Source: Paraspadella gotoi | Taxonomy: Eukaryota > Animalia > Chaetognatha | Reading direction: 5' to 3' | DNA: 64,000 nucleotides | Assembly (NCBI GenBank): GCA_051294375.1 | Contig: CM119269.1 | Coordinates: 2,472,699-2,536,698, forward strand | Shown here: positions 3,642-53,124 of the stretch, piece after piece | How positions within the stretch are numbered: the stretch's first letter is position 1 | Layout: every line of letters starts with the position of its first letter | The notes under the pieces: model-generated | What the model saw: the letters and a program-made list of their open reading frames with translations, nothing else | Databases searched by the model: none | Told to the model about the DNA's origin: nothing | Position numbers and translations under genes: made by a program

Positions 3642-6600
3642 ACGAACCCTCCTCGCCCCTCCGCGAATTTCTCCGTCAACGAAATCCCGAGAGGCAGCAT
3701 TCGGCGACGCTGGAGTCCTACCTCATCAAACCCATCCAACGAATTCTGAGATATCCCCTGCTGCTGCAGCAACTCAAGGCCCTCGTGCCCGTGGGCAAGG
3801 AAGAACACCGACACCTTACCGAGGTAAGGATTCGGTTCATAAATTCTTCAAGCTTTGCTTTAATAAAAATATAGCAACTATATCGAAACGTTCTCGCGAA
3901 ATTATTTTGAGGTTCCAGTTACATATTAAATATTACATAATTATATATATATTACATGATGCTGGGCGGAGTACAATATAGTATTCCCCGATCTAATACT
4001 TAAGGGAGTGGTCTTTTCATACAATCGAAACATTCTTTGAAACATTATACCAATTTATTGATAGGGAAGCCAGGTACTCCGGGAGTGAATAAACGAGACT
4101 GTGAAAGAGTCTTGATTGAAAGCTTGCAGGGACCTGCTATGTCATTATCTTGTAAGAGTGATGGAGGCCTTAAACCACCAAAGCCTGTCCAAAGTCAGGG
4201 GCAAGATAGCTTGTTTATTAATTGAATGGATAATTTTTTTATTGGTTGTACCAATTTCCTAACCTGTCTCTACTGTTGCAGATCGTTAACAGAATCGCGC
4301 TGTCGTACTAATTGTGTTTCGCAGCTGCCGTCGTAAATCAGAGTCGCAAAGAATCGCATTTAAATTTCAATACAGGATGTCGTCGTCTTTTTCGTCGTCG
4401 TCGTCGTCGTCTTCATAATCTATTGGCGGCGGTGGAAAGTGTTCCAGTTTTTTTATTTCTGGTTCGAAGGATTTTTCCTCCTTGCTTCTTACCCTAATGG
4501 TCGTCGTCGTCGTCGTCTTTTTCGTCGTCGTCGTCGTCTATGTCATTTGAGATGTTGTTGTTGTTGTTGTATCAGGAGGTAACTTGAAAAAAAAAAAAAA
4601 AAATGTAGGAAGGAACGGGGAAAAAAAAGAATAGGAACATTTAGATCTATATAGAAAACAGTATTAGGTACACAATTTCTTTTTTTTTTTTATTATCAGT
4701 TAACCACTTGAATAGTTTATAATTTATAAATAGTTTATAATTAAGTTTATTCCTTAGTTTACCAAACGTGTTTGATTGAGTTGTATTCGACTCCCTTCAG
4801 GCCTTGAGTGGGATGGAAGCGGTCGCAGAACACATCAACGAGATGCAACGCCTCTACGAAGAGTTCGGGACCACACTGGAGGAGCTTCAGCGACAACAGG
4901 ATCGAACGCCCAGCGTCACCGGTGACTAGGGGATCGGGGTATTCATGACGGACTCAGGAAATAACAAAAACCGATGAGAATATAATTAATTTTAATGTTA
5001 GCCTGATTTGTAAACTAATATCTATGCATATCGAATTTTAAAATTTTTGATTGACCGACGGTTTTGTCTTTGAAAACGATAATTAAATATTGAAATGAAA
5101 TTAGACGTAGGATTATAATAATAAAAAGAATGTAGACGATGACGATGACAACGTTAAAGATGATAAAAACGACAAAGACAAAAAAAAAAAAACAGGATTA
5201 CGAAGACGACGACCCGACGTCGGGGACAACAATTACAAAGACGACGACGACGACGACGACGAGTAAGCGGCTTGATAAACGCGAGAATCAGCGTCTCCGT
5301 GGAAATTGAATAGTACAAAAGGTGCCATGAAAATGAAGACGGAGCACGGGGGAATGTCAGCAACAGATGCTTAGTCTGCGTCGAGTATTGATAAACCAAA
5401 TAGAGGGAAAAAATAAAGAGAAATTTATCGGAAATTAAAGAGATAAAATGAAAGGAGAAAAAGAAGTCGTTTTCACGGCGAATCAATGGCAAACAACGAC
5501 AACGACAACGACAACGACGACAAAGAAATTGCGCAACTTCTGATAAAGTACATTAATGAAGCCCCATCGTTCTTTCTATCGAAAAGAAATCAGAAACGAT
5601 AGGCAATATTTGAGAACGAGAAATACTCAATGTGAGAGAGCGAAAGAGAGAGTTCATACGAGTTCGGTACTTGTCAGAGTCCTCGTCAGCTAATGACGCA
5701 TAAATAACAAATGAATCTCCCGCCAAAAAAAGTCGCTGCGAGGAACCATTCATTCATTCATTCATTCATTCATTCATTCANNNNNNNNNNCGTTCGATAT
5801 CTCTTCGCATTTGTTTTTTGGGGTCATTTCCCATTCGCACTGAGCTGATAAAAGACTTCATCCCTCATCCCTTTTTCCGAATGTCATTCTTCGACGCGGT
5901 TTCCTTTAGAGGATCTTTCTCGTTTTCATCCCCGCTTCTCTTTCCTCTTTTAGGTTTAGGTCATCGTATTTTAATAACAAATGCTCCAATATTCTTTCCA
6001 CTCCCCCTCCCCCTGCCCCCAAGGCGCCCCGCCCGTCTCGCTATCCCTCAACGAGCTCCAGATGTACGGACTGGTGGACTGGCTAAACCTGGGCGAGGGT
6101 TCGGAGGGACTCGGTCGTCCGCGCAAAGGATGCGAATATGTGACGACGTGTTTCGTCTTCGTCACGTGCGTCGTCATTGTTTGTCAGGAGAAGACGAAGA
6201 GGAAGCACTCGGCAAAGGTGATGGGGAGGGGGATGAGGAGGAGGAGGAAGAAGAAGAGGAAGCACTCGGCAAAGGTGATGGGGAGGGGGATGAGGAGGAG
6301 GAGGAAGAAGAAGAGGTGATATAATTATAATTATAAACAATGTTACTTAACGGTTTCGATTAAGAAGCGTCGGATTTGGGTTCAACTCTTCAAGTGCAGT
6401 TTTTTTTAATTTATTTATTTATTTATTTTTTTTATTTTTAATATTTGTTATTAATACCAGAAAGAACCGATAGGTTTCGCCAGCAAGCACCGTTTCCTCA
6501 TCATTTCTCCTCTTCCTCCTCCCCCTCCTCCCGGAGATCCAGGCTCGAGTCCAGGGTTTAGGTTTTTCATTCACGCTCTTTTCTCTCTTTCTCTCTCACC

Positions 6601-9600
6601 GACCATCTCCCGTTCAGCTTCCGTTAGCTTTTTTTTCCACTACCGATTTAGTCGCTTAGATATATATTCCCCTTTTTCCGCCATTCACCTCGTTTTTACT
6701 TACTATTAGTCCGAGTTAGCCTTACCCGACTGTAGTTAGAGTGGCGCCCAATGTGGGGGTCGAACCCACGACCCCAGGATTAAGAGTGCTGTGCTCTTCC
6801 GACTGAGCACTTTAACCCAAATTCGGTGTTTCTTAATCAATATCTAAACAGTGCATGCGATGACTACAAACTTAAAATTATGGGTTTTTTTCCTATCACC
6901 GTAGATGAAAAAATACTAACTCTATAACCCAAATCGTCAAGTATTTTAGAGACTTCCAAGATTTTTTTTTTCAAAAATTTTATTCAAAGGAACACTTTCT
7001 AACATATTTTATCACTGATATTGGTCGGATCATTTCTGTAAGGTGTACGCTTTTGGCGCAAGTGAAAAAAAGAGGAAGAGTAGAAAGAACGTTTAAAATG
7101 GCATATATATAAGTTAAAACGAGGTTGTACTTTGGTTCAATTATATAATAAGCTTAAAGTTTGGTCGAGGTATTAAAAGTTAAATCGTAGATGATGGTAA
7201 ATAAAATTTATTGTCGGTCGGATAACCTTACTTGATGAAAGGACGCGGCTTAGCGTCAACGTTGAAAGTGAAAAGCGGAAAATTAAATGGTTTCCCGAGC
7301 AGAAGATTTTTTTTTTTCTCAAGTCGAAACAGTTGAGCTCAACTGTGAGAGGAAACTAAGATTTTGTCTTAAGACGAAACAGTTTGGCAAGAAGAAACAA
7401 GGAGTGTTTTCTTATCTAAAATATTTTAACAAGAGAAAATGAGCAAACGAATGTTTTGTCAAATATACCCTTAGTTAAAATTGTTGTGTTATAAAAACAT
7501 AGCCTCAAAATAAAAAAAAGTTTTATATTTATAAAAACACTTGAGAAATAATAAAAACATTTTTTTTCTAGTCGAAACTGTTGTGTTAAAAAAAAACTGT
7601 TGGTCGAAAAGAAATTTTTCTCAAGTGGAATCAGAACGATTTTCCGTCTCAGCAAATTATAATTTACTGAGTCGAGATTCCGATGGAGCGAGTTAAAGTT
7701 TAAAGCGGAGAATTAAAACTTTTCACTGAAGGTTAACTTAATCTTCAAATTTGAAGTTAGGATCGTAAAAGAGTTCTGACACTACTTAAATTGAGTTAAA
7801 AAAAGATACAGAGGCATCTTATAAATATGTATTAATTCCCTACTCTTTTTTCCCCCCATTCAAACCTTTTAAACGAGGTTTGAAATTCAAAACGCTGATA
7901 TCCTTTTGAGAAGAAGTTTAAATCTTATCTTTATTATTCAGTACGTTTTAGAAATTGAAATTTTTCTCGGTCAGATAAGATAATTGTAATATACTAACGT
8001 GTAAGGCTTTTTGTCAATATTTTAATAATGTAAAAAGATTTCTCCACGTACACAGGGAGGAAACGCGACGCTGACATATTCCGATCACGGTGACCACGCA
8101 TCGGGTCAAGCGGCGAAGCTCAAATTTCAGGGGGTCATACCCATCACTGAAGTTCAGGTGCGTATGTTCTTAAATATGCTTTCACTCTATGTTTTTATTG
8201 CCATCGGTTATAGGGTTTATTTGATTTGAAAAACGAAACACAGTTGCACGGAGAGAAAAAGATTTCCCCCACAAAAATCCATAAATATTTAGAATGATTT
8301 TATTTTTATTTTTATTGAAGAGAAAAAAAGAGAGAGAGCGATGACTTTTACCAAAATCCATTTTTTTTCTTTTCCCCAAAAAGACAAATGATGTTGAGGG
8401 ATCAAAGCAAATCTGCTCAGCAAGTTTTCCTCAAGATTTAAAAAAAAAATCTTATCTTTTCGCGGAATGTTTTTTGTATCTGTTTTGTTTGTTTGCGCCC
8501 ATTTAGCTAGTTTTATATATTAAAATAGACGTTAATAACTGCCAGACTTCCAAAACCCATTGGCAGGTTATATTGTTTTGGTCTCATAATTTACCTTCGC
8601 TGTTTTTTTTTCTTCCCATTTTATCAAAGGTCGTTTTTGTTTTTGTTTTTTTTTTTTGGTCCCTCGGAGGAGCGTTTCCCCATTTTTTTTTCAATTTGGC
8701 GCCACGCGTTGGTGTTTTGGCCTCATTTCATTGTTTGTACCTAATGACGAGGTCATCCCTTGTGTTATCAAGAGGTCATTTCCCGGCGACGCCCGCGTCT
8801 TTCCGAATTCTTCCTTCCACTCAATTTTTTTCCCCTCTTCCTCGATTCTTCCGGTTTATTTTTTTCCATTTTCCCTTTCCTCTTCTTATCTTTTCTTAAA
8901 CTACACTGCGGCGCAAAAAAAAGTAGCCACTTTTTCACTTCGAATAAACTGTATGGATGGTTAAATTCTACAAAGATATAAAAATATAAAACAAAGTTTT
9001 TTGAAAGATGAACCAATTGGTCCAAGTCCCAATAAAATTGAGCAGAGCGTTCAAAAGTTATAGGCCGTCAAAATTCAAAATAGATTGGTCAACAAGAGTC
9101 AATAACTTTTTTTATTATATAATATATTTATATTAATATATATTTTATAATATAAAAATGGCTGAATGAATTCAGCATAGAATATTTGTAAAATAGATAA
9201 AAAACTATATAAAAAATATAATCATCAGTCAGAAAAAAAAGTATCATTCACTGAACCTCTAAAAATTATTTTTCCTAATTCCATTTTCAGATTCTAAAAG
9301 TATTATTGTATTTTACTGCCTGAACCAATTAATTTTTTTTTGCACCAATCAGTAACTTTTTAAAAAGCTATACTTTTTATAAATATTTTTTTTAAATTAA
9401 AAAAAAAAAAATAGTGGGATATTTAAAGCTAACGAATGGCTACTTTTTTTTTGCGCCGCAGTGTCCTTTTCTTGGTTTCTATCTTCTCCATCAAAATCAT
9501 ACTATTTTCCTTTTAATATTAAAAAACCTTTTTTTATCATTTTATTTTTACCACTCTCAAATATTATCCCTTATCCGTGATCCTCCAGTTCCTCTTTTCT

Positions 9601-11800
9601 ATCTTTCCTTCGTATCCACCAGTCTCATTATTTCTCATTGCCTTTCCCCCCCCATCCTCCGCCCCTTTCCCCAAACCCCCCAAACCCCAAACCCCCCAAA
9701 CCCCCCAAACCCCCAAACCCCCAACCCCCATCTACCAATCCTCATTCCCATCCACCAGGTCCGTGCATCTACCGTCGTCGACACAGAAGGTCATTACGTG
9801 TGGGAGTTGGTTTACCTCAAGAGTCAAACCCTGGGTGGACCCGAGCGCGTCTTCCAAATGGCCTGCGGGTGAGTCTCGAGTTCGGTGCAGGGGTGAGGTC
9901 GGGAGTCTGGCTCGCCGGGTCCATTATCGCAGCGGTTTGGGAGGATCTGGGTTCGGTACGCTCAATTTAACACACTACTGTATGTACTAAGTACTATGTA
10001 GTAAGGAAGGAGTAATGAAAACCAAAAAAGAGAGTATAAATAATAGCATTTAAACTGTTTGGCAATGCTCGCTTCTGCTTATTGTGATAAATGTAATAAT
10101 CTGCATAATTGTAATACTAAATACTAATTAGAGAAAACAAATTTGAAATGTCGGTCCATCCAGTTAGATTTTTTTTAATTTATATTTATAATTTTAGAAA
10201 ATTAGCTACATATTGCCACCTATGCGTCCTTAACTTTGCATTTTTCCTCCATCTCTTCCTCTTCTTCATTATTCTTTTCTCCTTCTTTCCATCTCTTCCT
10301 CTTCTTTACTATTCTTTCCTCCTTCTTTCCATCTCTTCCTCTTCTTTATTATTCTTTCCTCCTTTTTTCATCTCTTCCTCTTCTTTACTATTCTTTTATC
10401 CATCTTTTCTCCTTCTTTCCATCTCTCCCCATCTCGTCCCATCTGTTCCCCGCCATCACCAGATTGAAAGAGACGAAGATGGCGTTTCTTCGCGGGATCC
10501 GACAAATGATTCGCGAGGGCGTCCGGCAGATGGCGTCGGCGGATATCGCTGTCTCCGCGTCCAGCGCCACCCGAGGAGAGACGCTGCCCGGCCCGGTCCA
10601 CGAGGGCGGCGGTGGCGTTGGCGGAGGAGGCGGCGGAGGGGCGCCCCTTCAAACCCCCGGGGCCAGAGGACCCCCGGCGGGGTTCAGGCTTCCGGGTCTA
10701 GGGGAAGGAGGAGGTGGAGGAGGAGCGGAGGGAGGTGGTGGAGGAGGAAGAGGAGGTGGGGGTGACGGAGGAGGAGGCGGTGGCGGGGGTGGTCCGCACT
10801 TGACTTCATTTTTGAGTCAGGCGAATCTGCGCAACGATTTGGGTAAGTAGAGAAGGTGGGGGGATAAGTTTTTGGGAGAATTCTGACCTCAATAAGTCTA
10901 TTTCGGTCGGTCGGTCGGCGTGACCGATCCCATCCGATCCTCCTTTCGATTCCATCCCCGTTCCATCCCCNNNNNNNNNNNNNNNNATCCCCGTTTCATC
11001 CCCGTTCCATCCCCCAACTCCATCAGGCGTTCCCCCCGGATCCTCCTACGACAGCAGCTTAGAGACAGATAGCGTTCAGGCCCAGCGGAAGTCGAATCGA
11101 ATGGAGAAACGAATGGAGAGATACTCGGCGCATTTTTATCAGACGCCCGATTACGACAATCTCTTCGTCAGCGAACTCTCCAAGAAGCAGCGCCAGTTCG
11201 GCCTAAGTCGGGGTAAGCGAAAGAAGACTGAAGGACAGCGAGGAGAATCTATTGGCCCGAAGTTGATGGCTTCGACTGTCGGCCTTGTCTGTCTTTTGTT
11301 ACTTTTTTTAGTTTTTATACAATTCTTTGCTCTTTTACTGTTGACCTGTGTTTTTCTCGCTCGTCGATTTTGGTCTATCCTTTTCCTACGCTTGGTTGAT
11401 GTGAGAAAAATAAAAAGAAAAGAAAATACACGTTTATTTTCTGGGGTGCTCTTTTTTTTTTGCTCATCGACGATGTTTCTTAAAAAAAAAACAAAAAGGT
11501 CAATACAAAAAACAAAAAGGTCAATACAAAAAAAAAACAAAAAGGTCAAAACAAACGACCTCAGAAAAAAAAAATTTCCGTTAGATGTCCTTCTTGCTTC
11601 TCTGTTTTCGACAGCGCTCAACCTTCACCAGGTTTTCTTGTTGCTCTTGTTAAAATGTTAATGCAGTCGTTGTTGTTGTTGTTGTCCCTCTCAGGTTCGG
11701 CCGTTGACTCCGGCCAAGAGATCGCCTCGTCATTTTACTCGAGGAGCCTCACCTTGGGAGACTTGCGACCTGGAGCCGTTGATGGACGGATGCAACTCGT

Positions 11801-11896
<96 letters not shown>

Positions 11897-12594
11897 GTTG
11901 TAAGAATAGCCAGTGTTTCAAACGGTTTTCTTCTCTCAGATGCCTCACCCTCGGAATCTTGGTCCAACACGATGAGTCGATTGCCCTACAACATCGGGGT
12001 GGCATCGTCGCCCTTACCCGATAAAGGTAAAAGCCTGGAAAGTTATTTAGAAAACCTCATACATGGAGGACGAACCTCTGAACGTAATCCATCCCCGTAA
12101 CAGAATTTGGCGCCGTGGGGATGTCTAGTTTGGCCGACGAAATACTCATGACTTCAACACTTCCCCAGGTAAATAATTAAATGTGTTATACATGATGGAG
12201 CAGTAAACTAAGAAAGTACCATGAACATCAATTTGAATGCTCGATTGTGGAAACATATCATTTTTTGATAAAATCTTTATGAGATGACCAATGGTCATTG
12301 ACCATCCTCTTCTCCTTCGCCCCCCCCCTATTCATTCAGTACAACTACCCCACCAACATTCCGCCCCCTCCCCCGGCGGCGCCTCCACCGCCCCCGGGTC
12401 CGCCCAAACCCCGCCCCCCTTCGCGAAGCCTACACACTCACTTGACTCCGCAGCCGGGCGGCGGAGCGGGCCGCTTGACGGGCGCCGCATCGGGCCGGCA
12501 GCAGCCCGTCACGTCCCCAGCGGCCTTGGGTCCGGACCATCAGGGTCACCGGCCTTTCAAGACCCACGACGCTGGTGGACAAAGTATGCAGTAA
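3642..12594 (+). CDS. sif/TIAM-like: Tiam1/Still life-like Rac guanine-nucleotide exchange factor, 3' part (end of DH domain, C-terminal PH domain, disordered tail); 5' part not found in window
   Basis: Phase-consistent GT-AG exons: 3642-3823 ([31 protein letters not shown]), 4801-4921 ([23 protein letters not shown]), 6024-6217 ([16 protein letters not shown]...CFVFVTCVV), 8056-8157 ([11 protein letters not shown]), 9759-9868 ([17 protein letters not shown]), 10463-10842 ([17 protein letters not shown]), 11027-11212, [11695-11798, phase problem], 11940-12026, 12104-12168, 12340-12594 (stop). AATAAA at 12611. [18 protein letters not shown] and [10 protein letters not shown] are Tiam/Sif DH signatures. 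Confidence 0.93.
4106..4258. repeat. Interspersed 153-bp repeat, copy 1 (intronic)
   Basis: Near-identical to 17242-17394, same orientation (agagtcttgattgaaagcttgcagggacctgc...ggttgtaccaatttc). Confidence 0.9.
6196..6316 (+). repeat. 57-bp tandem duplication spanning a splice donor
   Basis: gaagaggaagcactcggcaaag|gtgatggggagggggatgaggaggaggaggaagaa occurs at 6196-6252 and 6253-6309. Confidence 0.92.
6742..6808 (-). pseudogene. 5'-truncated tRNA-Lys(CTT) copy ending in CCA (probable retroposed tRNA)
   Basis: The minus strand reads gctcagtcggaagagcacagcact-CTT-aatcctggggtcgtgggttcgacccccacattgggcg-CCA. This matches eukaryotic tRNA-Lys(CTT) in D-arm, anticodon loop and T-arm. The 5' acceptor strand is missing and the anticodon stem is imperfect. 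Confidence 0.85.
8904..9463. mobile_element. Non-autonomous DNA transposon (MITE) with ~26-bp TIRs, Tc1/mariner-like
   Basis: Left end TA|cactgcggcgcaaaaaaaagtagcca; right end tggctacttttttttttgcgccgcagtg. AT-rich non-coding interior. TA is seen on the left flank only (right flank is TC). Confidence 0.8.
10245..10430. repeat. Pyrimidine-rich minisatellite (~40-bp unit) directly upstream of the 10463 acceptor
   Basis: Repeated ccatctcttcctcttctttactattctttcctccttcttt. Confidence 0.75.
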
Positions 12595-13611
12595 AATTCA
12601 AGGATTGGTAAATAAATCATGCAAACTTTTTTATTTACTTTTTCCTCCGAAAAATAAACAAAAATTCGGGTTTTAAAAATTATGCTTAAATTTAAAAAAA
12701 AAAGGCGATCGCTCTTTTACTTTTTTTTTTCTTTTGTTGCTCCATTTATTTTTCTGTGGACATCCATTTTGTTTCTTGTTTATCGTTATGATTATTAGTA
12801 TGTAATTTGTTTTTTTATATTTTTGCTTTTACCTTCACCATCTATTTCTATTAAGTTTAATTCTAATCTTAGCGCCTGATTTAGTTTCGCTTTAGTTTAG
12901 GACGTCTGACAAGCAGAGATCTAAAAATGCTACAAAAATGATGTCTTTTACTTTGTCTATATTTTACGACTATAGTTAATCTTGAAAACGAATAAAATAA
13001 AGACTGAGTAAACCTTAAATATTATTTCAATTCAAAATTTGCGAAGTTTTAAAAAGCCTATAAAAGTACTATTAAAATACTAAACTTTCTATCAACTTTT
13101 TTAACTCTACGTACAAGCAAAAACAAAAGTTAATTAACCAAAAGATTTCTGAGTATTTTCCCAAATTAATTAGCCCAAACATTTGTCAATCAAATCATTT
13201 TTAAGCTATTAAATTCATGAGAAGGTTCATTCAGGCTTAAAAGTCAAAATAAGATCCTTTGTAGTTTTTCCAATTTCGGTGGTCTTAAACATGGAAAACT
13301 TTAAGTTCATGCGTTGGCAGAGAACGCTCATTTACTTTCAATGGTTTAACCCCTTTTCTTTTATGTGGCTTAATTTAAAAGATTGCACTTAAGAAAAAAA
13401 AATTTTAAAACATTTTTACAACTTTCCATTAAAAAGTTTTGTTTCAATTTCAACTTTTTATTTCTTTCTTTCTTTTTTGTTTTGTCTTTTTTTTTCTGTT
13501 TTTTTTTATTTTCTCCTTTCCTTCTTTCTTTCCTTCTTTCTTTTTCTCTTTCTTTCCTTCTTTATTATTATTTTTCTTACTCTCTTTCTTTCTTTCTTTA
13601 TTTCTGTCTTA

Positions 13612-13662
<51 letters not shown>

Positions 13663-13913
13663 TTTCTTCTTTCCTTCCTTCCTTCCTTCAACACTGATTC
13701 CCGGTCGCCGTTTTATTTTCCATTTACATAGATTTTGCATGAACCCCTTTATTGGTTTTTTTCCCCGCGCTGTTTAGTCTCGCATAGACAGACGTCAGAA
13801 ATAGTGTTTATCGCGTAATTTTATCTGGTTGTACTTCGTTTATGTTTGCTCTGTAAGTTTTCTTTCATCTATTTTTCTTCGTGATTATATCTTGGAAATT
13901 CATTGATGAAAGG

Positions 13914-14574
13914 GTAGCCATTAAGGCGTAGTAAAATTTTTAAATTTAACTTTAATTAAAATTCTAAAATTGAGGAACGAACAATATTATACTAATAAAC
14001 ATTTATGTAATAAAAAAAATTTATAATAAATTTGACAATTTACGCAGTAGGCCATATTTATACTAGTACTAAACCAATAAATGTTAAAATTTCAAAACAG
14101 TTTTTTCTGAGATTTTTTTGCAGATTTGGATTCGTCAGAGAAAAGTTGATAAAAAGAAATATAACTCTTTTTGAAAAATTCCTTCATTATTAGAAAAAGC
14201 TATATTTTAAGCTGAAAATTAATTTTTTATATATTAAATATAGTTTTTTAATTTTTAAACCAATTAATGAAAGAATTTTTAAAAATGATTTATATTTTCC
14301 TATATCAACTTTTGACGAGAAATTCAAATCTGCAATAAAAATTAAGAAAAGCCTATTCTAAAATTTTTCGATTTTATAAGGATAGTATTATAAATAAATA
14401 TATATAAACATATATAAATATAAATAAATATAAATATATATAAATATTGCCTACTGTAAAAATTAAAAAAACATAAAATTAATTTTTTTTACAAATTAAT
14501 GTTCACTGATAGTATGTTGTTCATAATTGACTTTTAGAATTTTCGTATGTAACTTTCACTACGCCTTAGTAGCC
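13914..14574. mobile_element. Foldback/palindromic MITE (long imperfect inverted repeat)
   Basis: Nested inverted pairs: taaggcgtagt / actacgcctta; cagtaggccatattta / taaatattgcctactg; tgcagatttggattcgtca..aaagttgata / tatcaacttttgacgagaaattcaaatctgca. Confidence 0.75.
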
Positions 14575-14822
14575 ATATGGAGACAGAGAAAAGAAAGAGA
14601 GGTTAGAGCGATGAATAAGCTTTATTATCTTTCCGAGTTCTTTTTTTAATTTATATTAAAAAAATTAACTCTTTGTGGTTAATAGAAAATCACGGCTTCT
14701 TGCCCTTTATGCCCAAAACGTTCGAAATCATTTGGCTTCCCTTTTTCGATTCGACTCCATCGGCAAAGACGAAGGAAAACTTCGCCGTTACTCATTTACA
14801 TTTTTTTCCCTTTTTTTCGGGA

Positions 14823-14836
14823 GTCGCCTTAGCAAC
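14823..14836. promoter_or_regulatory. Candidate RFX X-box, followed by a strong splice donor at 14891
   Basis: GTCGCCTTAGCAAC fits GTNRCC-N(0-3)-RGYAAC; cggg|GTGAGT at 14891. Motif match only. Confidence 0.3.
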
Positions 14837-15959
14837 GCTCCCCTTTAACGCGAGACGCTAAATCCCTTTATTTCCACATTAAACCCCGGGGTGAGTCCAC
14901 AATAAAAATTTTAGACTCGTCAGAAACGACCCCGCATTGATCTGTCGTAGAGCGAACTTCACTCTCTCAGCTGATCCTTACCTGTCCTTACCCCGGTCCT
15001 TAACTACGTTCTCTAGTTTAACCTCACCCTATTTTTTCTTACCGACTTCCACCAAATACACTTTATCTCTAGTTTTCTTTTTAACATCTTCCTTCACTCT
15101 TCACTTCCTTCCACCTTTCACTCGGCAGTCGGAAACTTTCAATTCTCTCTAATTAAATCTCTTTTCATAATCGTCCCCGCTAGAGAATCCCCAGATCCGT
15201 CTTTTCCCCTCCGCCTGCTTTTTTTTTATATCCCTGAATCCTTTTTGGGATTTGAACGATGCCATTTCGTGGATGCCGTCCCGACAATGCCATCCCGACA
15301 ACGCGGTCCCGACAATGCCGCAATTTGGAATTGACCCCCTTGATGGTCTCTTTCGGTTTTCCTGAGTGGCGCTGAGAAAATGTCGCGTCATTAAATGGAG
15401 ATTTTTTCATCTCCCGAGGCGTTCTCCAATCGCATTTCGTTCTCCCGTCGTCGATTTCTCCCCGTTCTCCACCGTCTAACTCCTCGTTTAAATCCGCTAA
15501 CTTACCTTCCGTCCGATTAGCCAACCGCTCTACCTAACCAGGTTTTCCTTTTAAACCTTCTCTGTCAACCTGCTTGAATTTTTGAGAGGTGGGCGACTGC
15601 AGATTGGGGGAGCGGGGTTGGATTGAAATATCCTGATCAACGTAATATCGATTTAAAAATTTGCTTAACTTAAAAAAACAAAAAAAAAAAAAAACACAAA
15701 AAACAAATAAATAAAACCAGGAGTAGTAAGGCGTAAATTCACCTCCTACTAATTATCAGGGAACGCCTTAAAATTGCTTTAATTAGGAGGCGGGAGAAAA
15801 TGATCTTTTTTTAAGTTAAAATTCAAAAATGGCTGAAAGGGAAGAAAGAGACAAAAGCCTTTTCCTTTATCGTTCGCGGAAGCGAAACTACTTAACGGTT
15901 AAAACCTTCCTTGTCGTTAAAACAGTTTTATGCGAATTTCTTTTTTTTAAACCCGACAA

Positions 15960-16055
<96 letters not shown>

Positions 16056-16887
16056 ACTCACGGATTTCTGCCTGTAACTCACCCCACTTTCTCGCGTAAT
16101 CCTTTCGCCTCTTTTTTTTGCATTTTCACTTTTTCGTATGCCGTTTTTTAGACTAACTTAAAGTTTTGTATTGATTACCAATCCTTAAGCATGGGACCAG
16201 ATGATGATGATGATGATGATGATAATGATGATAATGATGATCATGATGATGATGATAATCATGATGGCCTTTCTCTATTTTTTTATTTAAAAAAAAAAGT
16301 ATTTTTTTTCTTTTCTCTCTCTTTCTTTCATTATTTGACGTTGGAAGCTTAGCGAAATTGTTCGGAATCGATTTTTTTTCTCAACGCTTAAATCACAATA
16401 CAAACATTAAACAATACATAAAATAAACAATACTATACTCCGAACGGTTATCGCGCGTTTTATCTTCTAAATGTGAATAAAACCAAACGTAAAACAACGA
16501 CGACGACGACGTCGATACAAATGCTTTGGGTAGATGCGATGACCTCTCCCCAATTCTCCCGCCGAAATATTTGGCATCCTCGCACATTCCTCAAACCCGC
16601 ATCCCTCTCCCCTACCTCCCCCTTCATTCCCTTTCTCTTTCCCCCCCCGAAATCCCCTTCTTTCTTTCCCTTCAACTCCCCCCCCCTCCCGCTCTCTCTT
16701 CAGCCTTACCCCGCTACCTCGCCCCGTCCCTTACCTCCTGCATTCCCCGCCGATTCTTTCTTTCTTTTCCTTTTTTTTTTTCTCGGCTTCACTTCGCTTC
16801 CCGACGCCGATCCACCACCTTGACCACTCCTTCTCACACCACCTCACTCCCCCTTCAACGAACCACCTCCACTCCCTGGGACACCGC

Positions 16888-16934
<47 letters not shown>

Positions 16935-16982
16935 GTGCTCCTCACTCTCTATCTCTCTCTCGAACGTCTCGGCGTCTCGCAG

Positions 16983-18101
16983 GCTCCAATAGCACTACGC
17001 CTTCGCGGCCGACCTCCAGTTGCAGCGGAGATCCCTCGCACCGCGGCAGCACCGGAAGTCTGTCGTCGTCGTCGACGGCGACGACCGCAGTGCACAAGAA
17101 GCAGTCCAACAACTCCACCTTCAACGACGCCTCCTCCGTCTCGGCGTCCGTTTCAACTCCGGCAACCATCAAGGTGAGTCGGATATGGTCAATCAATCAA
17201 TCAATCGGGTGAATCAATCGATCGGTCTCACAATCAGAGAGAGAGTCTTGATTGAAAGCTTGCAGGGACCTGCTATGTCATTATCTTGTATGAGTGATGA
17301 AGGCCTTAAACCACCAAGGCCTGTCCAAAGTCAGGGGCAAGATAGCTTGTTTATTAAATGAATGGATAATTTTTATATTGGTTGTACCAATTTCATAATA
17401 AATTTATCAAAATGTAAAAAAAAGGAATAAAAAAAGAAAAGAATTAATCAAACATTTAAGTAAACTAAACTAAACTAAAAACTAAACTTAATATATCTTT
17501 AATTCTTCCTCTGGAGACGAGCAGATTAATTTATTTGGTTCCTCAATCTCATTTGCATATTGTAGTATTCCGATTAAGTCAGCCAAGTAGCCTTCAAATC
17601 ACTAAGTAAGTCTTAAGTTCTTTCTCCACTGAACTTATATAAACCGATGTTATGAATAATCAGGGGAACCTTTTTATATATATATATATATTATATTATA
17701 TAATATTATATATTATATACATCCTCTTCTTTTCCCAGGCCTACAGTTTCGAGGACTCAACTTCCTTCCCCTACGCGACTCCCTTCTTTCAATTTCCTCC
17801 TCCGTTCAGTTATTCTTGGACGATGTGGGCGCGGCCGAGGCGCACGGTTCAGTATCAGGTCAGAGACGAAACGGTTCAGTATCAGGTCAGAGACGAAACG
17901 GTTCAGTATCAGGTCAGAGACGAAACGGTTCAGTATCAGGTCAGAGACGAAACGGTTCGGGACCTGGGATCATAACCGTTTGGGTTAAGATGATCTTGGG
18001 TTAGTTGAAGCTTCAAATCTTATGAGAAGGATGAAGGAGGTAGGCCCAGTACAACAGACACTACTACAAAACAAACTACACTCACAAGGTTTAACTTTAA
18101 C

Positions 18102-18158
<57 letters not shown>

Positions 18159-20004
18159 GATCAGCTCCGCCTGGAACGACAGCCTCGAGGGCGACCTCCT
18201 CCCTGGTGACGAGGACGCCGCCGACGAGGGCGCCGCCTCGCCCACCGTCGCCTCGATCGGCGAACCAGCCCGGCGCCCTTCGTCCAAAATCTCCGCGACC
18301 AAAGCCTTCAAACGATGCAACTCTTCCCCTCTGCCTTCTCCTGCCTCCATCGAGCCGGCTCTACCTCCTGGTTGGTGAAATTGAAACAAATTTTTCGATC
18401 GCTGTTTTCTTCTTCGGCCGATCATCTCTCTTTGTTTCCTTGTCTTTCCTTCTTTCTTTACGTTTTCTTTTTTTTTTATTTTTCCCCCCTTTCTTTTTTT
18501 TCTTTTTGTTACGTTTTATCTTATTGTCTGTCCGTCTGTCTATTGCTGACTGTCCTTCCGTCTCTCTAACCCATTCTCGCTTCCTCCCTCCTTCCATTTA
18601 TCTCCCTTTCCCTATTTTTCCCGCCCTCCCCCTTTTCTTTCGCCCCCCTCCCTTCATCGCTCAGGATTCTACAAGTGCGGGCGTCCTCGTTGCCTAGTAT
18701 GCCCGTTCGTGGACGAGCGGGCATCGCTTTCGGTCAACGGGCAGCACCACGACATCCGCGACGCGTTGACGTGCGATTCCGCGTGCGTCGTCTACGTCAT
18801 TCTCTGCCTTCTGCACGTCAAGGCCTACGTCGGCGAGACGGACTGCTACCTCAGGCGAGTTCTCTTTTTGGGGTCACGTGACTCGTGAGGTCACGTGTCG
18901 GGACGGGGAGGCAAGGGAGGCGTCTTTAAATAGTATATATAAATAATATATACTATAAATAGTATTTAGGGCAATAAGCGAGTTTATATTAATATATATT
19001 TATATTTATATTCATATTAACCCGCCAAAAAAACTAACGTTATCAAATTTTACTTGACATTTTCAATTTTCTATGTCAATCCGTCGATTTATTTACAATT
19101 GCAGAGATAAATTTGTGGGTCACCGACGGGACATCCGAGCAAAAAAGATGTTTCCAGTCAGTCGCCACTTCAACCGTCCGGGTCACAACATCAGGCAGCA
19201 TCTCAGGTGAGGCTGTATACAACATTCGCAGCGGCCAACTCCCTCGCTGTCCTCATGAAAGAAAATGATGTTTTTGTAGTTTTAACGAATTTTTCTCGAA
19301 ATTCTCTAACCGAAGTTTGTTTTTTTTTTCTGCAGGGTGGTGGGCATCTACAAAGTACGGGATCCAGATTTGCTACAACACTACAAAACGACCTTCATCC
19401 ACTATTTCGATACTGTGCAACCAAATGGCCTTAACATCAGTCTTGGTGAGCAATTTATTTCAAGATCTCTCAGAGATTTTGGGTGTAAGCTTAGTATTAA
19501 AGACCTAAATTTACTTTGAATGAGATCAGTAAAAAACATAATTATTTTTGGTTTATTATATAATTTATATAAATGTGATAAAATATTTTTTGCGGAAAAC
19601 AAAATGGCAGTCGTTATCTTACATCTCGTTCTGATCAAATGTGTGAACAAACAAAATTGTTTCGAAATAATTGGTTCGTTAAAAGGACGGCTATGGCAAA
19701 GACAAAGACACAAAAGTTATACAATTAAGTAATTGATTAAAAGCTTCAGCCAAGGGAAGGAGGTACCTCATTTAGTCTACACAGTCTCGACAAAATTTAA
19801 CGCTGCATCATCTGTCACCGGGCAGTACCCGCCTTCAAGTGTCCGCGCCTCTCCAAAATATGACGTGGACGGTTAAAAGTTGACAACTCAGCTTTTAAGC
19901 GCGAATGTCGCAGTAGGCGGAGAAAGCGTCGAAAGGCTTCCATCGAGAGGCTTCAAGATTGATGAACTCGGAGAAAATCGATTATTCACCAAAATATTTT
20001 TTTT

Positions 20005-20067
<63 letters not shown>

Positions 20068-20860
20068 CTCCACCCAAACCACATGGCAACGGTTCCAACG
20101 CGTCCTGCTAAACGGTTTAAGCCTCTCAACTCTTCGAGATAAATGAAAAGAGTTGGGAAAAAAGGTCGTAAGATCGATCCCTGGGAAACTTTTTTTCTTT
20201 CTTTCTTTTTTTCGTTAGGCGAAACGAAAACATTTTTTAAACACATTTTTTTTTCTGTAACCCCGCCATTAAACAGACGACATCTCGTACCTGTGCTGCC
20301 CTCTTCAGAACGGAATCAGCGCCCCCGACGTCACGACGGCGACGGAATGCACTTCCATGACGAACACGACCACGAACAGGTGAACATCGGAACAAAGAAA
20401 TAGATTGGACAAAAAAAATAAGCTCAATAACTAAGGAATAGCGAAGGAACTTAAAACAAGTGCTCATTAAATTAAATTCACGTAGACATAGACAAAAAAT
20501 AAAATTAACCGATCAATTACACGGTTACAATAAGAACGAGTCAATCCGAAAACAACCGAGTAACGGGGAATTTAAAAATTGAAAAAACAAAAACAAACAA
20601 AACAAACCAAAAAAGACAAATTTTGTATAAGACCAAAATAATTAAACAGAAAACAAAACAAAACCTAAGTGAAAATAAAACAGAAATAAAGAAGAAAAAT
20701 GAGAACAACAATCCAAAACAACGAGGGCGAAACAAGAAAAAAGAATTAAAAATTACTTTCGATCGATTCGACTCTCGATCGCCCTGTATAAAATTCATAA
20801 AAAAAAATATATATTTACATCTAATAGTATTAATAATAATAAATGGGATTGACTCTTTAA

Positions 20861-20902
<42 letters not shown>

Positions 20903-21162
20903 CTCTCTCTCTCTCTCTCACTCGCAGCCCCAGATCCTTTTCTCCTCCCACTTCTCCTCTCTGCTCCGCCTCTCTCTGTTCCGCTCCACCGCTCTTCTCT
21001 CCCCCACCCCTTCCTCCGTTCCTCCTCCTACTCTCCAACTCCTCCTACGCCCCCACTCCTCCTTCTTGCTCCTCTCCTCTCTCCTCCTCCACCTCCTCCG
21101 CTCCTCCTCCTCGCCCGCCTCCTCCCCGATTCGATTCTTATCTCTTGATGGAAACTTCTTGA
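16983..21162 (+). CDS. Multi-exon protein with Ser/Pro-rich regions and a Penelope-like (Neptune-type) GIY-YIG domain; 5' end unresolved
   Basis: Exons 16983-17173, 17739-~17824 (donor uncertain), 18159-18370, 18665-18854, 19105-19206, 19336-19445, 20277-20379 and tentatively 20928-21162. Phases match from 18159 onward. Confidence 0.72.
17242..17394. repeat. Interspersed 153-bp repeat, copy 2 (intronic)
   Basis: Near-identical to 4106-4258. Confidence 0.9.
17844..17958 (+). repeat. Perfect 27-bp tandem repeat, 4 copies plus 7 bp
   Basis: acggttcagtatcaggtcagagacgaa x4. Confidence 0.95.
18665..19445 (+). CDS. GIY-YIG endonuclease-like domain (three exons; first intron GC-AG)
   Basis: Spliced translation: GFYKCGRPRCLVCPFVDERASLSVNGQHHDIRDALTCDSACVVYVILCLLHVKAYVGETDCYLR|DKFVGHRRDIRAKKMFPVSRHFNRPGHNIRQHLR|VVGIYKVRDPDLLQHYKTTFIHYFDTVQPNGLNISL. 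It contains Cx4Cx2C...TC, VVY...YVGET, PVxxHFNxxGH and PxGLN. Confidence 0.9.
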
Positions 21163-23480
21163 TGAGAACCGCTCGGCCTCTCTCTCTTCCTCGAATCTCT
21201 CTTCTCCGTCTTCTCCGCCTCTCTCCCTCCTCTTCTCCTCGTATCCCTCGTCGCACCCCATGTTCGTCCTCTATCTCCTTCAACTCCTCGTCTGGTCTCG
21301 TCGTCCCGTCCCTCCGTCTCACACCCTCTCCTCCGTGTCGTCCTTTCAGGCTCCTCTCTCTCCTCTCTCTCCTCTCCCTCCGTCCCTCCCTCGCCCCCGA
21401 GTCCGTCAGCCCTCGTCTCCTCATGCGCCCCCGTCGTCTCCTCCGGAGCGTAGCGTCTCCACCGCCTCTCTCATCTCGTCGTCTCCGCCCTCTCTCGTCT
21501 CGCTCGTCTCTCTCTCTCTCCTCTCTCTCTCTCTCGTCTCTCTCTCTCTTCTCTCTCACTCACCCTCCGTTTCATTTCGTTCCTTTCTCGAAAAAAGTAA
21601 GTCCAGTGGTTTCGGAGATTCATTTTTTTTTATCATTTTAATGAAAATTCAGTTATCGTTTCTTAATTTTTATATTTTTAGTCGTTTTCACTTTTAGTTT
21701 GCAGTTGTATTTCCCGATTGAGATAAAGAATAGACGAGAACGCTTCTCAAGGATGATGGTGTCATTTTAGTACTCTGTCTTGCTTGCGGAATTCGTATGT
21801 ACAATTTTGTACATGGGATTTGAATATCTGCATTTATTTTATGTGTATAATAATTTTAGAAATTAATAATTGATAATTAATAATTAATAATTAATAATTA
21901 ATAATTAATAATTGAACAACAAAATGAGATTAATTTTTAACAAAAATTTTTTTTTAATTAAATAGGAAAGCCGTTTTGTATCAAAATCATTTTTTTTCCA
22001 TCAAGCAACATGGGGTGTTGGAGATCTAGCTCGACCTGTACTTGGCAATACAATGGTTGCTTCTTGATTGTCCGACAGTGAAATTGCTAAACTGTTGCAT
22101 CCGTATCCATGTTTTTAACCCTATGTAATATCTAATATCTTATATTTCAAAAAAGATAAAAAGCATTATGCATGTACAAAATTGATATTTTAAAGTTTGT
22201 GAACGAATTTCCCAACTCCGAAGAACGGAGAACGAGAAAAGTGAAGCTCAGTGACAAGCGAGAGATGCAACAATAAGTGTGACTGTTTTTCCCCTATTTT
22301 GAAGTTGTCTCATATCTCAGCTGTGCAAGGAACCGCGATTGTTTTTCGTGAAACCTGATAGCGCTCCATAGATAGTCTCTGCTGCTGAAGTTCAGAAACT
22401 CAAAAATCTCTTTCTTATAATTTAAAATGGAAGATAAATCTTAATTATATATTTTAGGCTTCATTTGCTGAGTTTATTGACACAAATAACATTTTGTTTC
22501 AAATTCACCCAATAAAAAAAAGAGAGAAACAAATCTGTACAACTAAACAAAGCAGCCGAGATTAAAAAGATAAGGAAAAAAAACCACCGCGAATTCGCTT
22601 GTCTGATTAATTTCTTTCTTTTTGATCTCTGCCGGATTTCCAATGTTCTTTCTCTCACTCACTTCCTCCAACAGACCCACGACCCGCGGCTCATTGAATC
22701 CCCAGATCAATAAATTTTTTTTTTTTTATTCTTTACTAATGTTTAGTATACAGTCTCCGATAATACATTCGAATTAGAACGTACAAAAAACTAACATAAG
22801 ACGATAATGAACCCTCTAAACTAATAAAATGCTTTTAAAAAAACAAAGAAACCTAATTTGATTTACGTTTATTATCCACTGGTCTTTCTTTTCTCCTTCT
22901 CTCTTTCTTTCTATTCTCTTTCCTATTCGCCCAAACGTTAACCATCGCTTTGATCATCATAATTGCTCGCGCCCGTCGAGATAGAGTCAAATTGTTTTTG
23001 GTCAATTACTACAGATGGCGTAAAATACGGGGTTTGCACCGTATTTTTGATTAGTCAATATCACTATAAAGTCATAAAACTATAATATATATATAAATAT
23101 TTTTAAAGTTCAAGTTGTTTTAAGATAATTTTGAACATATTTTTGTTTTTGACAAAATTAAAAAATGTTTACATCTGTAAAGAACAACCAAAAATAGTTT
23201 TGGTCTTTCTTACGCTCTCGCTCGCCTACCCATTCAAATCAAAATCCCCCATAAATTAAAAAAAGTCAAATATTGTGATTTAATTTGTGAAATTTTATAT
23301 TATGTCTAATTGATTTTTCTTTGCCCTCGACTCGCCCCACCCCCCATCTCGGTAAAAACTTCATCTGGATCTTCAACGTCTCGACTCCCTTCATCCAAAA
23401 ATCAATTCCATCCCGAAAAAAATCCTGCAATGATGATATTAACAAACATTCATCTTTGATATTTATAACTTCCATGAAAA

Positions 23481-24044
23481 ATGCATCAACGCCGAACCTT
23501 AACATCCACAAGCGAATCGACGGCAACATTGAGCACAACCACCGGACCTGAGGATTGGTGTCACCGAACTCCGTCGCCGCAACATCGGCGTCGCTCCAAA
23601 TCCGCCGTCAAAGCCGCGCGAACCGCGTCGTCGCCGCAGACGGCGCTGGCGGCGTCGTCCCATCACCGTCCGCCGCACCATTCTCAAAGCGCCGGGCGCG
23701 GCGTCGATTCTGCGGGGCCACCGGGAACGTCGTCTCGGACTCACCCCCGTTCCGGCGCCGCTAGAACATCCAAGGGAGACTCTCGTACCGGCGTCGCCGC
23801 GGCGACGGCTTCCACCGCGTCGCCCCGCGAAGGGCGTCGCTCCAAATCGACGACGGGACGCCGGGATTCGACGCGCGCTTCGCGGGCGCCGCAACAGGGT
23901 GCCGGGGCTGGGCCGGCGTCGGGCGGCGGCTCGTCGGCAAAAAAGGCTCAATCGACGGGAAACAATCAACAGAGGGGAAGGTCCTCATCCAAAATCAAAC
24001 GTAGGCTGGTTTTAGACGATCAAGGATCCTCGGACGTTCTTTGA
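23481..24044 (+). CDS. Hypothetical 187-aa basic, Ser/Arg/Ala-rich disordered protein (single exon)
   Basis: GC-rich ORF in AT-rich flanks, like other exons here; start in an aaaaATG context; RRSKS occurs twice; C-terminal KRRLVL. No recognisable domain. Confidence 0.55.
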   Translation: MHQRRTLTSTSESTATLSTTTGPEDWCHRTPSPQHRRRSKSAVKAARTASSPQTALAASSHHRPPHHSQSAGRGVDSAGPPGTSSRTHPRSGAARTSKGDSRTGVAAATASTASPREGRRSKSTTGRRDSTRASRAPQQGAGAGPASGGGSSAKKAQSTGNNQQRGRSSSKIKRRLVLDDQGSSDVL

Positions 24045-26098
24045 GTGATTTAAAAAAGAATTAGTATTTAAAATATCGCCCATTAAATTCGTTATTCAAA
24101 GTACATATTCTAGACATATTAAGAAAACGTTTGTCACGATATTATACCATAGCGCATAATCGAAAATTAAGATTTTTTTTTTTTATCCTTCCGTTATGAT
24201 TTTACTACCTTTAAGGTATTAACAAAAACGACAGTGTCAACGAATAGCTGTGACATTAGAATTCATTAAACCAAAATATTACCAAAAGATATGACAAAAA
24301 TTAAAGCTTAGAATACAAATTTGTACTTAACTAGGGTAGATTTAGCAATCACCTTATCTATGCAATTTGTTAAAAAAAAACGCTTCATGTGAGATAACGC
24401 TTAATAAAAGCTATTACCGCTTATTATATCATGCTCTAAAACCATGCTAATATAAAAAATGCTCAAAAAAAATAGCCCGTTTTTTAGGCTCACTCATATG
24501 CAGTTTTATTAGTTTCAAATTTATCTTTTTCGTTTTTAAACATTTCTATGCTCTAATAAAACTGTGTATATTTGAGCTATTTGTCGGTAAACGTGGAAAA
24601 GTGCCCAAATGGAGTTGACTGCATTGATGCATATTGCCTTCTTGAAGGTTTAATGCTATTGTTCTTAAATCCTCAAATCTGATCTAGTCAAATTAAGCGT
24701 TTTGTTTTTGTACATTTAATTCCCTAAAAAAAACTTCGTCTCTTGTGATTTTGCTTATAGAAAAAAGTTGTATTGTACTTTTAAAAATGAAGATAATTGC
24801 AAAATGCTTCAAGGAGTAGCATGATTATAATTTTGCTTACATCATTCCTTACTTTCAAGCTGTCTATAATTAATTTTTAACAAGTTCATTTTAAAAAGTA
24901 GCAGCTTCTAAAGATTTAGAAAACTTTAGTCGATTTTGGTTTTGATTATTAACAATCGATAAATTTTAGGGTTTTTTTTTGGTAGAATTTGATTTGCTAT
25001 CCTTATTTTTTTTTAGATGCCTGATTAAAGACTATTTACTTGAAGAATACTCAATGAACTTGTGGTAGTGGCCGCCTTTCAAGACATTTAAAAAAGTTTT
25101 AAATATTATAGTTTGGACGAATTTTAGTAAAATAGTTTGGCTCAAACGAACTCATACAATACTTTGATCTACCTTCAAGTCGTGTAAAAACATTTAGATT
25201 TTTTGGCGAAAGATGAAACTGCCATGGGAATATATATTTAAAGCTCAAGAGCTAACTCTGCAAGGTTAAAACAAAGATTATAATTAAAAGACTTGTCATA
25301 TTATATTTAACTTTAGTACACTCACTAAAGACGGATTTTCCCTAACGTATATTCCCTATGGTTGTGCTGTATGATTACTTTTAAAATCCCTTAGCTTACG
25401 GCAGCATGAGTATATATATTTATTTTTTGTTGTGGTTTATCAATATGGACGTTGAAGACTGTATTTTGTTTTCTAATGTGTAGTTTCATTGTATTGTTGT
25501 GATATTTTTTCTTCCCATTCCCTCGTTTATAAACTTCATTCATATTTACATTTATTTATTTTTCTTTTTTCCTTCAACTAGTTTTGTCATTAGATTTTCA
25601 GTAAATTTTTTGCTAGTATATTCAAAGATTTAATTATAACCATTTATTATCTAGTTTAATAAAAACAGGCCAAACTGATAAAATTTAGTATTTAGAAATT
25701 TAGAGCAGTTTTAACATTAGTTTTCTCAAAATAAATTTGACGAACTGCACATTCGAGAGATTTTTAATTGGTTGATTTTATTTTTAAAAAATCAGAAGAA
25801 GTTATAAAGTATAAAAAAGTAATGACAACTTTTTTTATCATGAGCAAGATAGTTACTACTGTAAATAATCGGTATCCGAAAAAAAAAAACGCTTTTAACA
25901 TTTCCAAAAAAATGACTACGAGGTCGTTATATGTAAGTGTCATTTTTTTTAATGTAGTGATTATACTTTAACCATAGCTGTAAGTTTTCAGTGTTTTTTT
26001 TTTATAATGAATTTATATTTTTATCTTACTCAATTCTCGAGTCTTAAAAGAAACTACTGTATTGGCCTAGGGCGATCAAACTCCTCGAATAACAACAA

Positions 26099-27966
<1,868 letters not shown>

Positions 27967-28924: not shown

Positions 28925-29059
28925 ATTAGCAAAGAGAATTTGTTTTTGTTTCAACAACGATTTTTTTTTAATTTTGAAGACTCGTACTAGAGTCGAAACA
29001 TGTCTGTTTTATATTTAAAAAAATCGCTGTTAAAACAAAAACAAATTTTCTTTGCTAAT
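28925..29059 (+). repeat. ~45-bp inverted repeat enclosing a degenerate hammerhead-like core (Penelope-like terminal remnant)
   Basis: Arms attagcaaagagaatttgtttttgtttcaacaacgatttt / aaaatcgctgttaaaacaaaaacaaattttctttgctaat. Core tgaa-GACTC-gtacta-GAGTC-GAAACATGTC. GAGTCGAAACATGTC recurs at 29926-29940. Confidence 0.6.
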
Positions 29060-30460
29060 TAATTTTTTAATATTTATTCATAGATAGGAAAGGCTAAATT
29101 TTTTTTTTAGATTTTTTATTTGTAAGAACAGATTCAAGTAGCTTGCCAAAAGTTGTCAACACAAAGTATAATTTTTTGTTTATATTTTGATCATAAGTGG
29201 GTAAAAAGTAAGAAAAACCGGTAATAATCATCATCATCATCATCTCTCGATAATTTTATCACTTTTTCTTAATTTTGACCAAGAAAATGTAAGAATTTTA
29301 AAAAGTTGTAATCATATTTTGGCTATCAAAGAAGAGTGTTGTACCTAATGTTCCCTTTGCTTGGCCTTTTACGATTTACTTCTTAAAATTTAAATAGACT
29401 AATTAAAATGACTTTCGAATTTGAAAATACAACAGATAACTGTACCAGAAAAGGTCCAATCAAAATTAAAATTTAAAACTAATAAAAGCATAGAACAGAG
29501 AACAGGATTTCGAATCGAAGCTACAAACGTTATAGGTAATTAGGTATTCTATATAAAACCAAAAATTAATTTAAGAGAATAATTATAACTATTTGACAAT
29601 AATATAAAGAATAATAATAAACTATTATAATTATAAAGAGATAAACTGGCTTTTATCTGAAAACAGATTTTTTGCTCTAAAGTGCGCTCTGGTGGAGAAG
29701 CGAATCTGTTACGTCAGGAAGAAAACAAAAGATCAGTTTTATTTGCTTTACATAAACATTTCTTCGATTTTTCCGTTTTCCTGCCAATTGACATACGATC
29801 GTCGATCTTTTGCATTTCGCATTTAGCATTTTGAGTATAGTATGTCCGAGAAAAACCACTTAGGTATCATGTCATATCATATCATATCACAGTTTTCATC
29901 TGTTTTCTCTCTTATACGGTAAGATGAGTCGAAACATGTCCAATAGTCTGTAATAAAATCGTTGTAAAAATACTAAAAACTTTCGTTTTCGAATCTGCTG
30001 AGGGTAAGATAGAAAATATAATAGAAAATGTAAATGTGGTATAACCAAAATACAAAACGAAAAGAAAATATCTTCTCAATTTATTCATTACTTAAAAATT
30101 AGGAAATTTTTCAGAAAAAACGATATTTAGATAATTTTACAGGTTTGCAATTGTAATAAATCATGATGAACAAATATTTGATAAAGAAATGATTGAAATG
30201 AAACCATACGGCAAACGCGCGAAAAGAAAAGAAAAGACCAAAATGTATATAAAGTTTATAATAATGCTGGTCTGAGTTAAAAGCTTTTCAAACGGTTGCT
30301 TAATTTACGGAAATAAAGTAAATGTGACCTTATTTCAATATTCCCCAAAAAAGAATTGCTTAAGCTTGTAAGCGAACCCTATTTGTCCAAGCCAAGTTCG
30401 ACTCAACACTAATACATTTTGCTATCTGTGAAGATTACGATCTATTAGAAGTATCTTGGT

Positions 30461-53124
<22,664 letters not shown>

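Follow-up and report, generated by a model that had tools for sequence, protein, structure and literature searches.

We found that a chaetognath gene carries, split over three exons, a GIY-YIG domain of the kind encoded by Penelope-like retroelements. Our favored reading, to which we give a probability of roughly 60%, is that this domain, predicted to be non-cutting because Lys replaces the catalytic Arg and Glu, forms part of the disordered C-terminal tail of Tiam/Still life, where it would serve as a binding module with two zinc sites. The window, that is, the whole stretch of DNA analyzed, comprised 64,000 nucleotides of Paraspadella gotoi contig CM119269.1, and all positions below refer to it. 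The domain is expressed and intron-split, its expression being known from one contig of one run. Judged by homology, its origin is a Penelope-type GIY-YIG endonuclease, and the Rac GEF Tiam/Still life is its most likely host gene.

All features of the captured domain lie on the plus strand. Exon A (18665–18854) ends in phase 2 with a GC rather than a GT donor and contains the Cys codons of a CX4CX2C..C zinc site (18676, 18691, 18700, and 18772), both GIY-YIG tyrosines (18793 and 18826), and a Cys (18805) and a His (18814) of a second zinc site. Exon B (19105–19206, ending in phase 2) adds the zinc His residues at 19166 and 19184, a further His at 19121, and a Lys codon at 19109, while exon C (19336–19445, ending in phase 1; splice predicted) carries a Lys codon at 19385 and the terminal Asn at 19433. 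Immediately upstream lies a Ser/Pro-rich acidic host exon (18159–18370), which ends in phase 1 and closes with the Pro-Gly that opens the captured domain. The next host exon downstream (20277–20379) begins at acceptor 20277 or 20309, which scored 7.5 and 10.7, respectively, in a splice-site scan. The five exons and their phases were confirmed as first proposed in the initial annotation, and each motif it had listed (CX4CX2C, LTC, VVY-x10-YVGET, HFNxxGH, and PNGLN) was found in the spliced peptide. Pfam returned no match when the three nuclease exons were searched singly. A further Ser/Pro-rich tail is probable at 20928 to about 21596 and about 23330–24044, with frame breaks in both parts; the ORF at 23478–24041 had no match in Pfam or in the Atlas. 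Degenerate repeats and frame breaks at 1–500, 20928–21596, and 23330–23480 suggest indel errors in the assembly.

Transcript evidence came from a run search with sampled words of 18159–19990, which found one matching run, X1, from one study and presumed to be RNA. X1 contained a quarter of the sampled words, approximately the share taken up by exons, and yielded a single matching contig of 3460 nt at depth 8. This contig arrives at 18159 from the end of exon 17739–17858 (junction 17858/18159), skips a 294-nt GT-AG intron to join 18370 to 18665, and runs past 18854 into the opening letters of exon 19105 across a GC-AG junction, extending 2160 nt beyond 18854. The transcript thus has host exons joined directly ahead of the domain and the GC-AG intron removed. 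Splicing to unrelated Ser/Pro-rich exons had been claimed from the genomic letters, with 18370/18665 and 18854/19105 named among the junctions to look for; both were joined in the contig, which supports the claim upstream of the domain and at the GC-AG intron. The junction 19206/19336 is predicted from the homology that continues across it. Relative to the window, the contig has zero substitutions and one base fewer, at 18175, and its base count places the first five codons of exon 18159 in a different frame from the window's. The transcript's count puts the upstream exons into the frame whose third positions are rich in GC; with the window's own count, there is no open path through the splice sites. 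The transcript's frame at 18175 is the coding frame. The extra base in the window is most simply read as an assembly error, and it could be a real null allele.

A search of 1.84 billion representative proteins with exon A alone gave 108 matches at E ≤ 1e-3, none more than 48% identical. Forty of these 108 were scanned against Pfam, of which 37 matched GIY-YIG (PF01541) at E ≤ 0.01 and two matched RVT_1. That the three exons give a complete, in-phase GIY-YIG domain, as had been proposed, was borne out by a score of 153 bits for the spliced domain against the homolog profile, a score that is circular for exon A, since exon A was the query. Neither exon B nor exon C was used as a query, and they scored 19.3 and 9.7 bits against this profile, each above all 100 of 100 shuffles. 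Identity to Penelope-like GIY-YIG endonucleases was 31–39% over 130–200 aa. An Atlas search with exon A returned unnamed eukaryotic clusters and one cluster with 10% GIY-YIG members, and in a word-seeded protein search with exon A (110–2000 aa) none of 10 candidates scored. The available excerpt of PMC8557442 gives two zinc motifs, a linker CX2-5CxxC and an internal CCHH, as typical of Penelope-like endonucleases, and both are recognizable in the window domain. The Penelope-type origin stood, while the proposed Neptune-type assignment is tentative: in our tree, the window domain falls, with weak support (86/75), beside two homologs whose endonuclease is C-terminal, and the same excerpt describes Naiad and Neptune endonucleases as nearly indistinguishable. 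The sequence KAFKR in exon 18159, considered as a remnant of the upstream linker, was not significant, its score being reached by 19 of 200 shuffles in one test and by 347 of 2000 in another. No orthologue was found in the databases searched, where the best identity was 48%. A single metagenome locus, one from 360 pattern matches, proved false, being antisense to a bacterial gene.

Upstream on the same strand lies a Tiam/Still life gene. Its DH-domain exon within our chain (3642–3823; the gene runs on upstream) matched Pfam RhoGEF at E 2e-11 and, in the PDB, best matched TIAM1 (1FOE, E 3e-16; next families 2e-5). The end of the DH domain and the PH2 domain follow in exons 4801–4921, 6024–6217, 8056–8157, 9759–9868, and 10463–10842, which form an open chain with GT-AG sites. 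The top named database matches were Still life/TIAM1, and identity to Still life homologs was about 50% over 259 aa. Two tail exons (11027–11212 and 11695–11798) matched a profile of invertebrate Still life tails at E 5e-5. The N-terminal PH-CC-Ex, RBD, and PDZ domains typical of the family would lie ahead of the window's first base. In a Tiam tree, in which two copepod labels were read from identifier prefixes, the sequence of this fast-evolving invertebrate has a long branch and falls outside the arthropod and vertebrate clades that have support, its position unsure. One Tiam intron holds, on the minus strand at 6753–6808, a tRNA-like sequence (Rfam, 33 bits) that may be a tRNA fragment or the head of a SINE.

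The question was whether the nuclease exons belong to this gene. Reading 18175 with the transcript's base count opens a chain of 16 exons and 882 codons, free of stops, that leads from the DH exon through the nuclease domain; its splice sites are canonical, and it bridges a 4.4-kb intron (12584–16982). On the near side of this intron, the chain includes a Pro-rich tail exon (12340–12583) with a donor score of −1.1, where read-through stops a few codons later. On the far side, it includes a Ser-rich exon (16983–17173), which is in frame with the nuclease domain, has no ATG in that frame, and is a predicted member of the chain, and exon 17739–17858, whose joining is seen in the transcript. The donor of the latter lies within the first of four perfect 27-bp tandem copies (17844–17958), each of which has a splice donor, and the contig agrees with splicing from the first. 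The other frame of exon 16983, favored by a codon model, was rejected because it holds a stop and offers no path into the domain. A splice-site scan also gave a candidate alternative exon of phase 1-1 (11940–12026), which lies outside the main chain and could join 16983 in frame.

The length of the X1 contig bears on the same question. Ahead of 18155 it contains 895 nt; the two nearest exons account for 307 of them and leave 588. Under the Tiam chain, its 5' end would fall at 10789, the edge of a G-rich tract (10703–10786), and short-read contigs tend to break at tracts of this sort. Inclusion of exon 11940–12026 would place the end at 11060 instead, and we therefore regard the fit of the contig end as modest evidence. 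On balance, we consider it quite probable that the nuclease exons are linked to Tiam across 12584–16982.

A domesticated pseudo-nuclease in a separate gene, starting in the 12.6–17 kb gap and leaving Tiam to end shortly past 12583, is unlikely. In its favor, no read crossing 12583/16983 was found, the donor at 12583 is weak and has an in-frame stop just beyond it, read-through past 12583 would give a Tiam tail of normal length, and the tail homology ends at 11798, with no Still life tail match for the exons from 12340 on; exon 12340–12583 could thus be the end of Tiam. Strong unexplained donors at 14890 and 15588, in a moderately GC-richer patch of the long intron, may mark alternative first exons, and a Met codon in exon 17739–17858 could start a protein. 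Against such a gene, exon 16983 is coding-like and has an acceptor but no in-frame ATG, the frames open ahead of the gap donors run for only 11 to 19 codons and lack a Met, and no coding-like exon was found in the 12.6–16.9 kb gap. A separate gene would also have to place the 588 further upstream nucleotides, for which the Tiam chain sets the contig end at a low-complexity edge.

We then compared the active site with that of its homologs. Terminal Asn was reached by 41 of the 108 homologs, and the other 67 were dropped; removal of five more that were >70% alike left 36 rows, a set in which the terminal Asn column is conserved by construction because the rows were selected on it. The domain keeps 12 of the 15 columns that are at least 90% conserved in these 36 homologs, and in the other three His stands for Cys, Lys for Arg, and Lys for Glu. 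The two Tyr, the Gly, the His, and the Asn of an active GIY-YIG nuclease are all present. The Lys at codon 19109 occupies the position of I-TevI Arg27, where Arg is found in 92 of the 101 homologs that have a residue in that column and Lys in none, and the Lys at codon 19385 occupies that of the metal-binding Glu75, which is Glu in 39 of 40 full homologs, the remaining one having a gap. None of the 40 full-length homologs has both replaced, and the probability that three random misses would include both the Arg and the Glu is 0.03. In the homolog profile, these two columns line up with I-TevI position 27, an Ala in entry 1LN0, and with Glu75. A predicted model of homolog P0050 (pLDDT 85) had I-TevI as its top fold match, with a TM score of 0.84 over the target at E 2e-3; Foldseek with this model gave no match at E ≤ 0.001. 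In plant MSH1, a Glu-to-Ala change at the equivalent site abolishes cleavage, according to the part available of 10.64898/2026.06.11.731605. We predict that the domain is nuclease-dead through loss of the catalytic Arg and Glu.

The zinc sites present a different picture. The first, CX4CX2C plus a fourth Cys conserved in 36 of 36 homologs, is intact. In the second, the second Cys, also found in 36 of 36 homologs, is replaced by His, which is still a zinc ligand, and the other three ligands are kept, giving Cys-His-His-His, so that all eight zinc positions are Cys or His. Of 19 moderately conserved columns, the domain retains 16, against a homolog median of 14.5; its branch length of 0.77 is ordinary relative to the median of 0.62, and its net charge of +8 equals the homolog median. 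With its moderate columns well kept and its branch of ordinary length, it is unlike a decaying copy. This pattern of substitutions argues that the fold may have been kept under constraint while catalysis was removed.

These data also bear on a tolerated passenger, a functionless exonized relic of an element that decays slowly in a disordered tail, and we consider this explanation improbable. Disordered GEF tails tolerate insertions, the domain is found in one genome and lacks an orthologue in the databases searched, and a frameshifting base separates the window from its transcript. Three mutually unrelated internal and boundary introns nevertheless imply long residence, over which the frame has stayed open, and the losses fall on catalytic residues while every zinc position retains a Cys or His. 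By self-BLAST, the introns resemble neither one another nor other window sequence, apart from a 160-bp repeat in an upstream intron. This dispersed repeat occurs at 4103–4262 and 17239–17398, in two introns of the region, with 95.6% identity between copies. A weak Twister-P5 ribozyme match at 4157–4199 (E 0.32) fell below the gathering score.

An active or recently active Penelope-like element that retains introns, or a functional host nuclease comparable to the fish fusion described below, is very unlikely. The precedent is that Penelope-like elements can keep introns, and the available part of PMC3846280 describes one rotifer copy with an ORF intron that is transcribed. The window has a single copy of the domain by tblastn, and no reverse transcriptase was found in its six frames: tblastn with 115 homologs, RT-bearing ones included, matched only 18574–19456, in agreement with the earlier claim that none lies nearby. 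Neither flanking terminal repeats nor pseudo-LTRs were found in 16900–24100, and an Rfam scan gave no hammerhead ribozyme. Further points against are the splicing of the domain to host exons and the joint replacement of Arg and Glu. Canonical EN+ Penelope-like elements (cd10442 type; Neptune, Naiad, and Nematis) share with the window domain the CX2-5CxxC linker, three of the four CCHH ligands, the tyrosines, the His, and the terminal Asn, whereas the window domain has no RT or flanking terminal repeats near it, has introns within it, is spliced to host exons, and has Lys for Arg and Glu and CHHH for CCHH.

The usual animal GIY-YIG genes are SLX1, whose partner domain is a RING, and ANKLE1, whose partners are ankyrin and LEM. 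A diverged member of such a host family has a negligible chance of being correct: in the 40 scanned homologs GIY-YIG stands by itself, next to RT, or fused to unrelated domains and none has ankyrin, LEM, or the SLX1 RING, Pfam found no such partners in the flanking exons scanned, both zinc motifs specific to Penelope in the excerpt of PMC8557442 are recognizable, and the only GIY-YIG matches of the profile in the PDB were to I-TevI, not SLX1.

The layout had been thought to be undescribed in any animal gene, and this claim was weakened by a family in fishes, which makes the pairing of a host gene with a Penelope-type nuclease less unique. An eel homolog led us to the family: 17 of 20 database matches (P0079, P0236–P0249, P0251, and P0252) combine an N-terminal Penelope-type domain with a SLIP-GC (NUGGC-like) GTPase, in eels, conger, tarpon, bonefish, gar, and sturgeon, all basal ray-finned fishes (e.g., XP_035281912). 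The other three were one fusion of the fish-type domain to a HECT ligase domain, from a moray eel (P0250), and two RT elements. The fish domains keep the catalytic Arg in 18 of 19 cases and the Glu in 19 of 19, and they form a clade (support 100/96) that excludes the window domain. Judged by this tree, the fish fusion is a capture independent of the one in the window, and host capture would thus have happened more than once. In both, a host gene captured the same Penelope-type domain; in the fishes, the domain is N-terminal, catalytically intact, and partnered with a GTPase, whereas in the window it has Lys at both sites and its likely partner is a GEF. No paper pairing GIY-YIG with SLIP-GC/NUGGC for such a fusion was found in the open-access literature searched. 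The fish fusion offers a second, testable, multi-species case. Separately, P0095 places a partial Penelope-type domain in a HEAT-repeat protein and is likely a gene-prediction chimera, so database fusions need transcript checks.

Compared with Tiam1, Tiam2, and Still life, the window gene shares the DH-PH cassette and two tail motifs but would have a much longer tail with an inserted folded domain. A Penelope-type domain was found in none of the 120 Tiam homologs listed out of 136, which were ≤2000 aa and included no close relative. Domains of DDE transposases and of Gag and Env proteins are well-known cases of transposon domains taken over by hosts, and host–transposase fusions such as SETMAR exist. 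Catalytically inactive domesticated element proteins include PiggyMac-like partners and CapR, as described in the available portions of PMC6143343 and PMC8096241, respectively. In these three systems, as proposed for the window, an element enzyme is kept as a binding or scaffolding module; they come from DDE transposases or phage homing endonucleases and have nuclear or transcriptional hosts, whereas the window domain would come from a Penelope-like retroelement. No described case of host capture of a Penelope-like endonuclease was found in the open-access literature searched, and a rotifer survey reports, in the portion available, no strong evidence for exapted Penelope ORFs (PMC3846280). Both the donor class (Penelope-like) and the host class (Tiam) of this capture appear undescribed.

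In the mechanism we propose, a Penelope-like element would have inserted into the 3' region of Tiam, and its endonuclease part alone would have been kept in frame. Introns would then have been gained, one at the start of the domain, two inside it, and one at its end. Catalysis may have been lost because a free nuclease on a signaling protein would be harmful, with the fold retained afterward, and a basic surface could bind DNA or RNA without cutting and tether the GEF to chromatin or RNA granules, thereby localizing Rac activation. Such a putative non-cutting tether is the most likely job, at slightly less than even odds; it is suggested by the basic charge and by the role of mammalian TIAM2, which acts at the nuclear envelope according to the available part of PMC5974301. 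A zinc module that binds protein is a putative alternative that we hold more tentatively, and a putative decoy binding Penelope RNA or target sites seems improbable. On a wider and rather doubtful view, animals may have tamed the Penelope endonuclease repeatedly: in fishes from sturgeon to eels it would be kept intact on an immune GTPase, and here, catalytically dead but with two zinc sites, it would give a Rac GEF a grip on DNA or RNA and so couple nucleic-acid recognition to actin signaling. The gain of such a module by a deeply conserved polarity regulator would be unexpected, if true. The excerpt of PMC8557442 calls the role of the zinc motifs unknown, and a GIY-YIG pseudo-nuclease with both zinc sites intact would be a natural tool for asking about it.

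Elsewhere in the window, a short motif with a small hairpin is shared by about 28975–29005 and about 29920–29945; it had no Rfam match and, by eye, recalls the minimal hammerhead-like ends of Penelope repeats. Aquaporin/aquaglyceroporin-like exons, recognized by eye from their NPA motifs, lie on the minus strand at about 30450–31540 and 51584–52054. Also on the minus strand, 26099–27579 contains a cytochrome P450 gene (Pfam E 5e-60), one of whose exons is very long.
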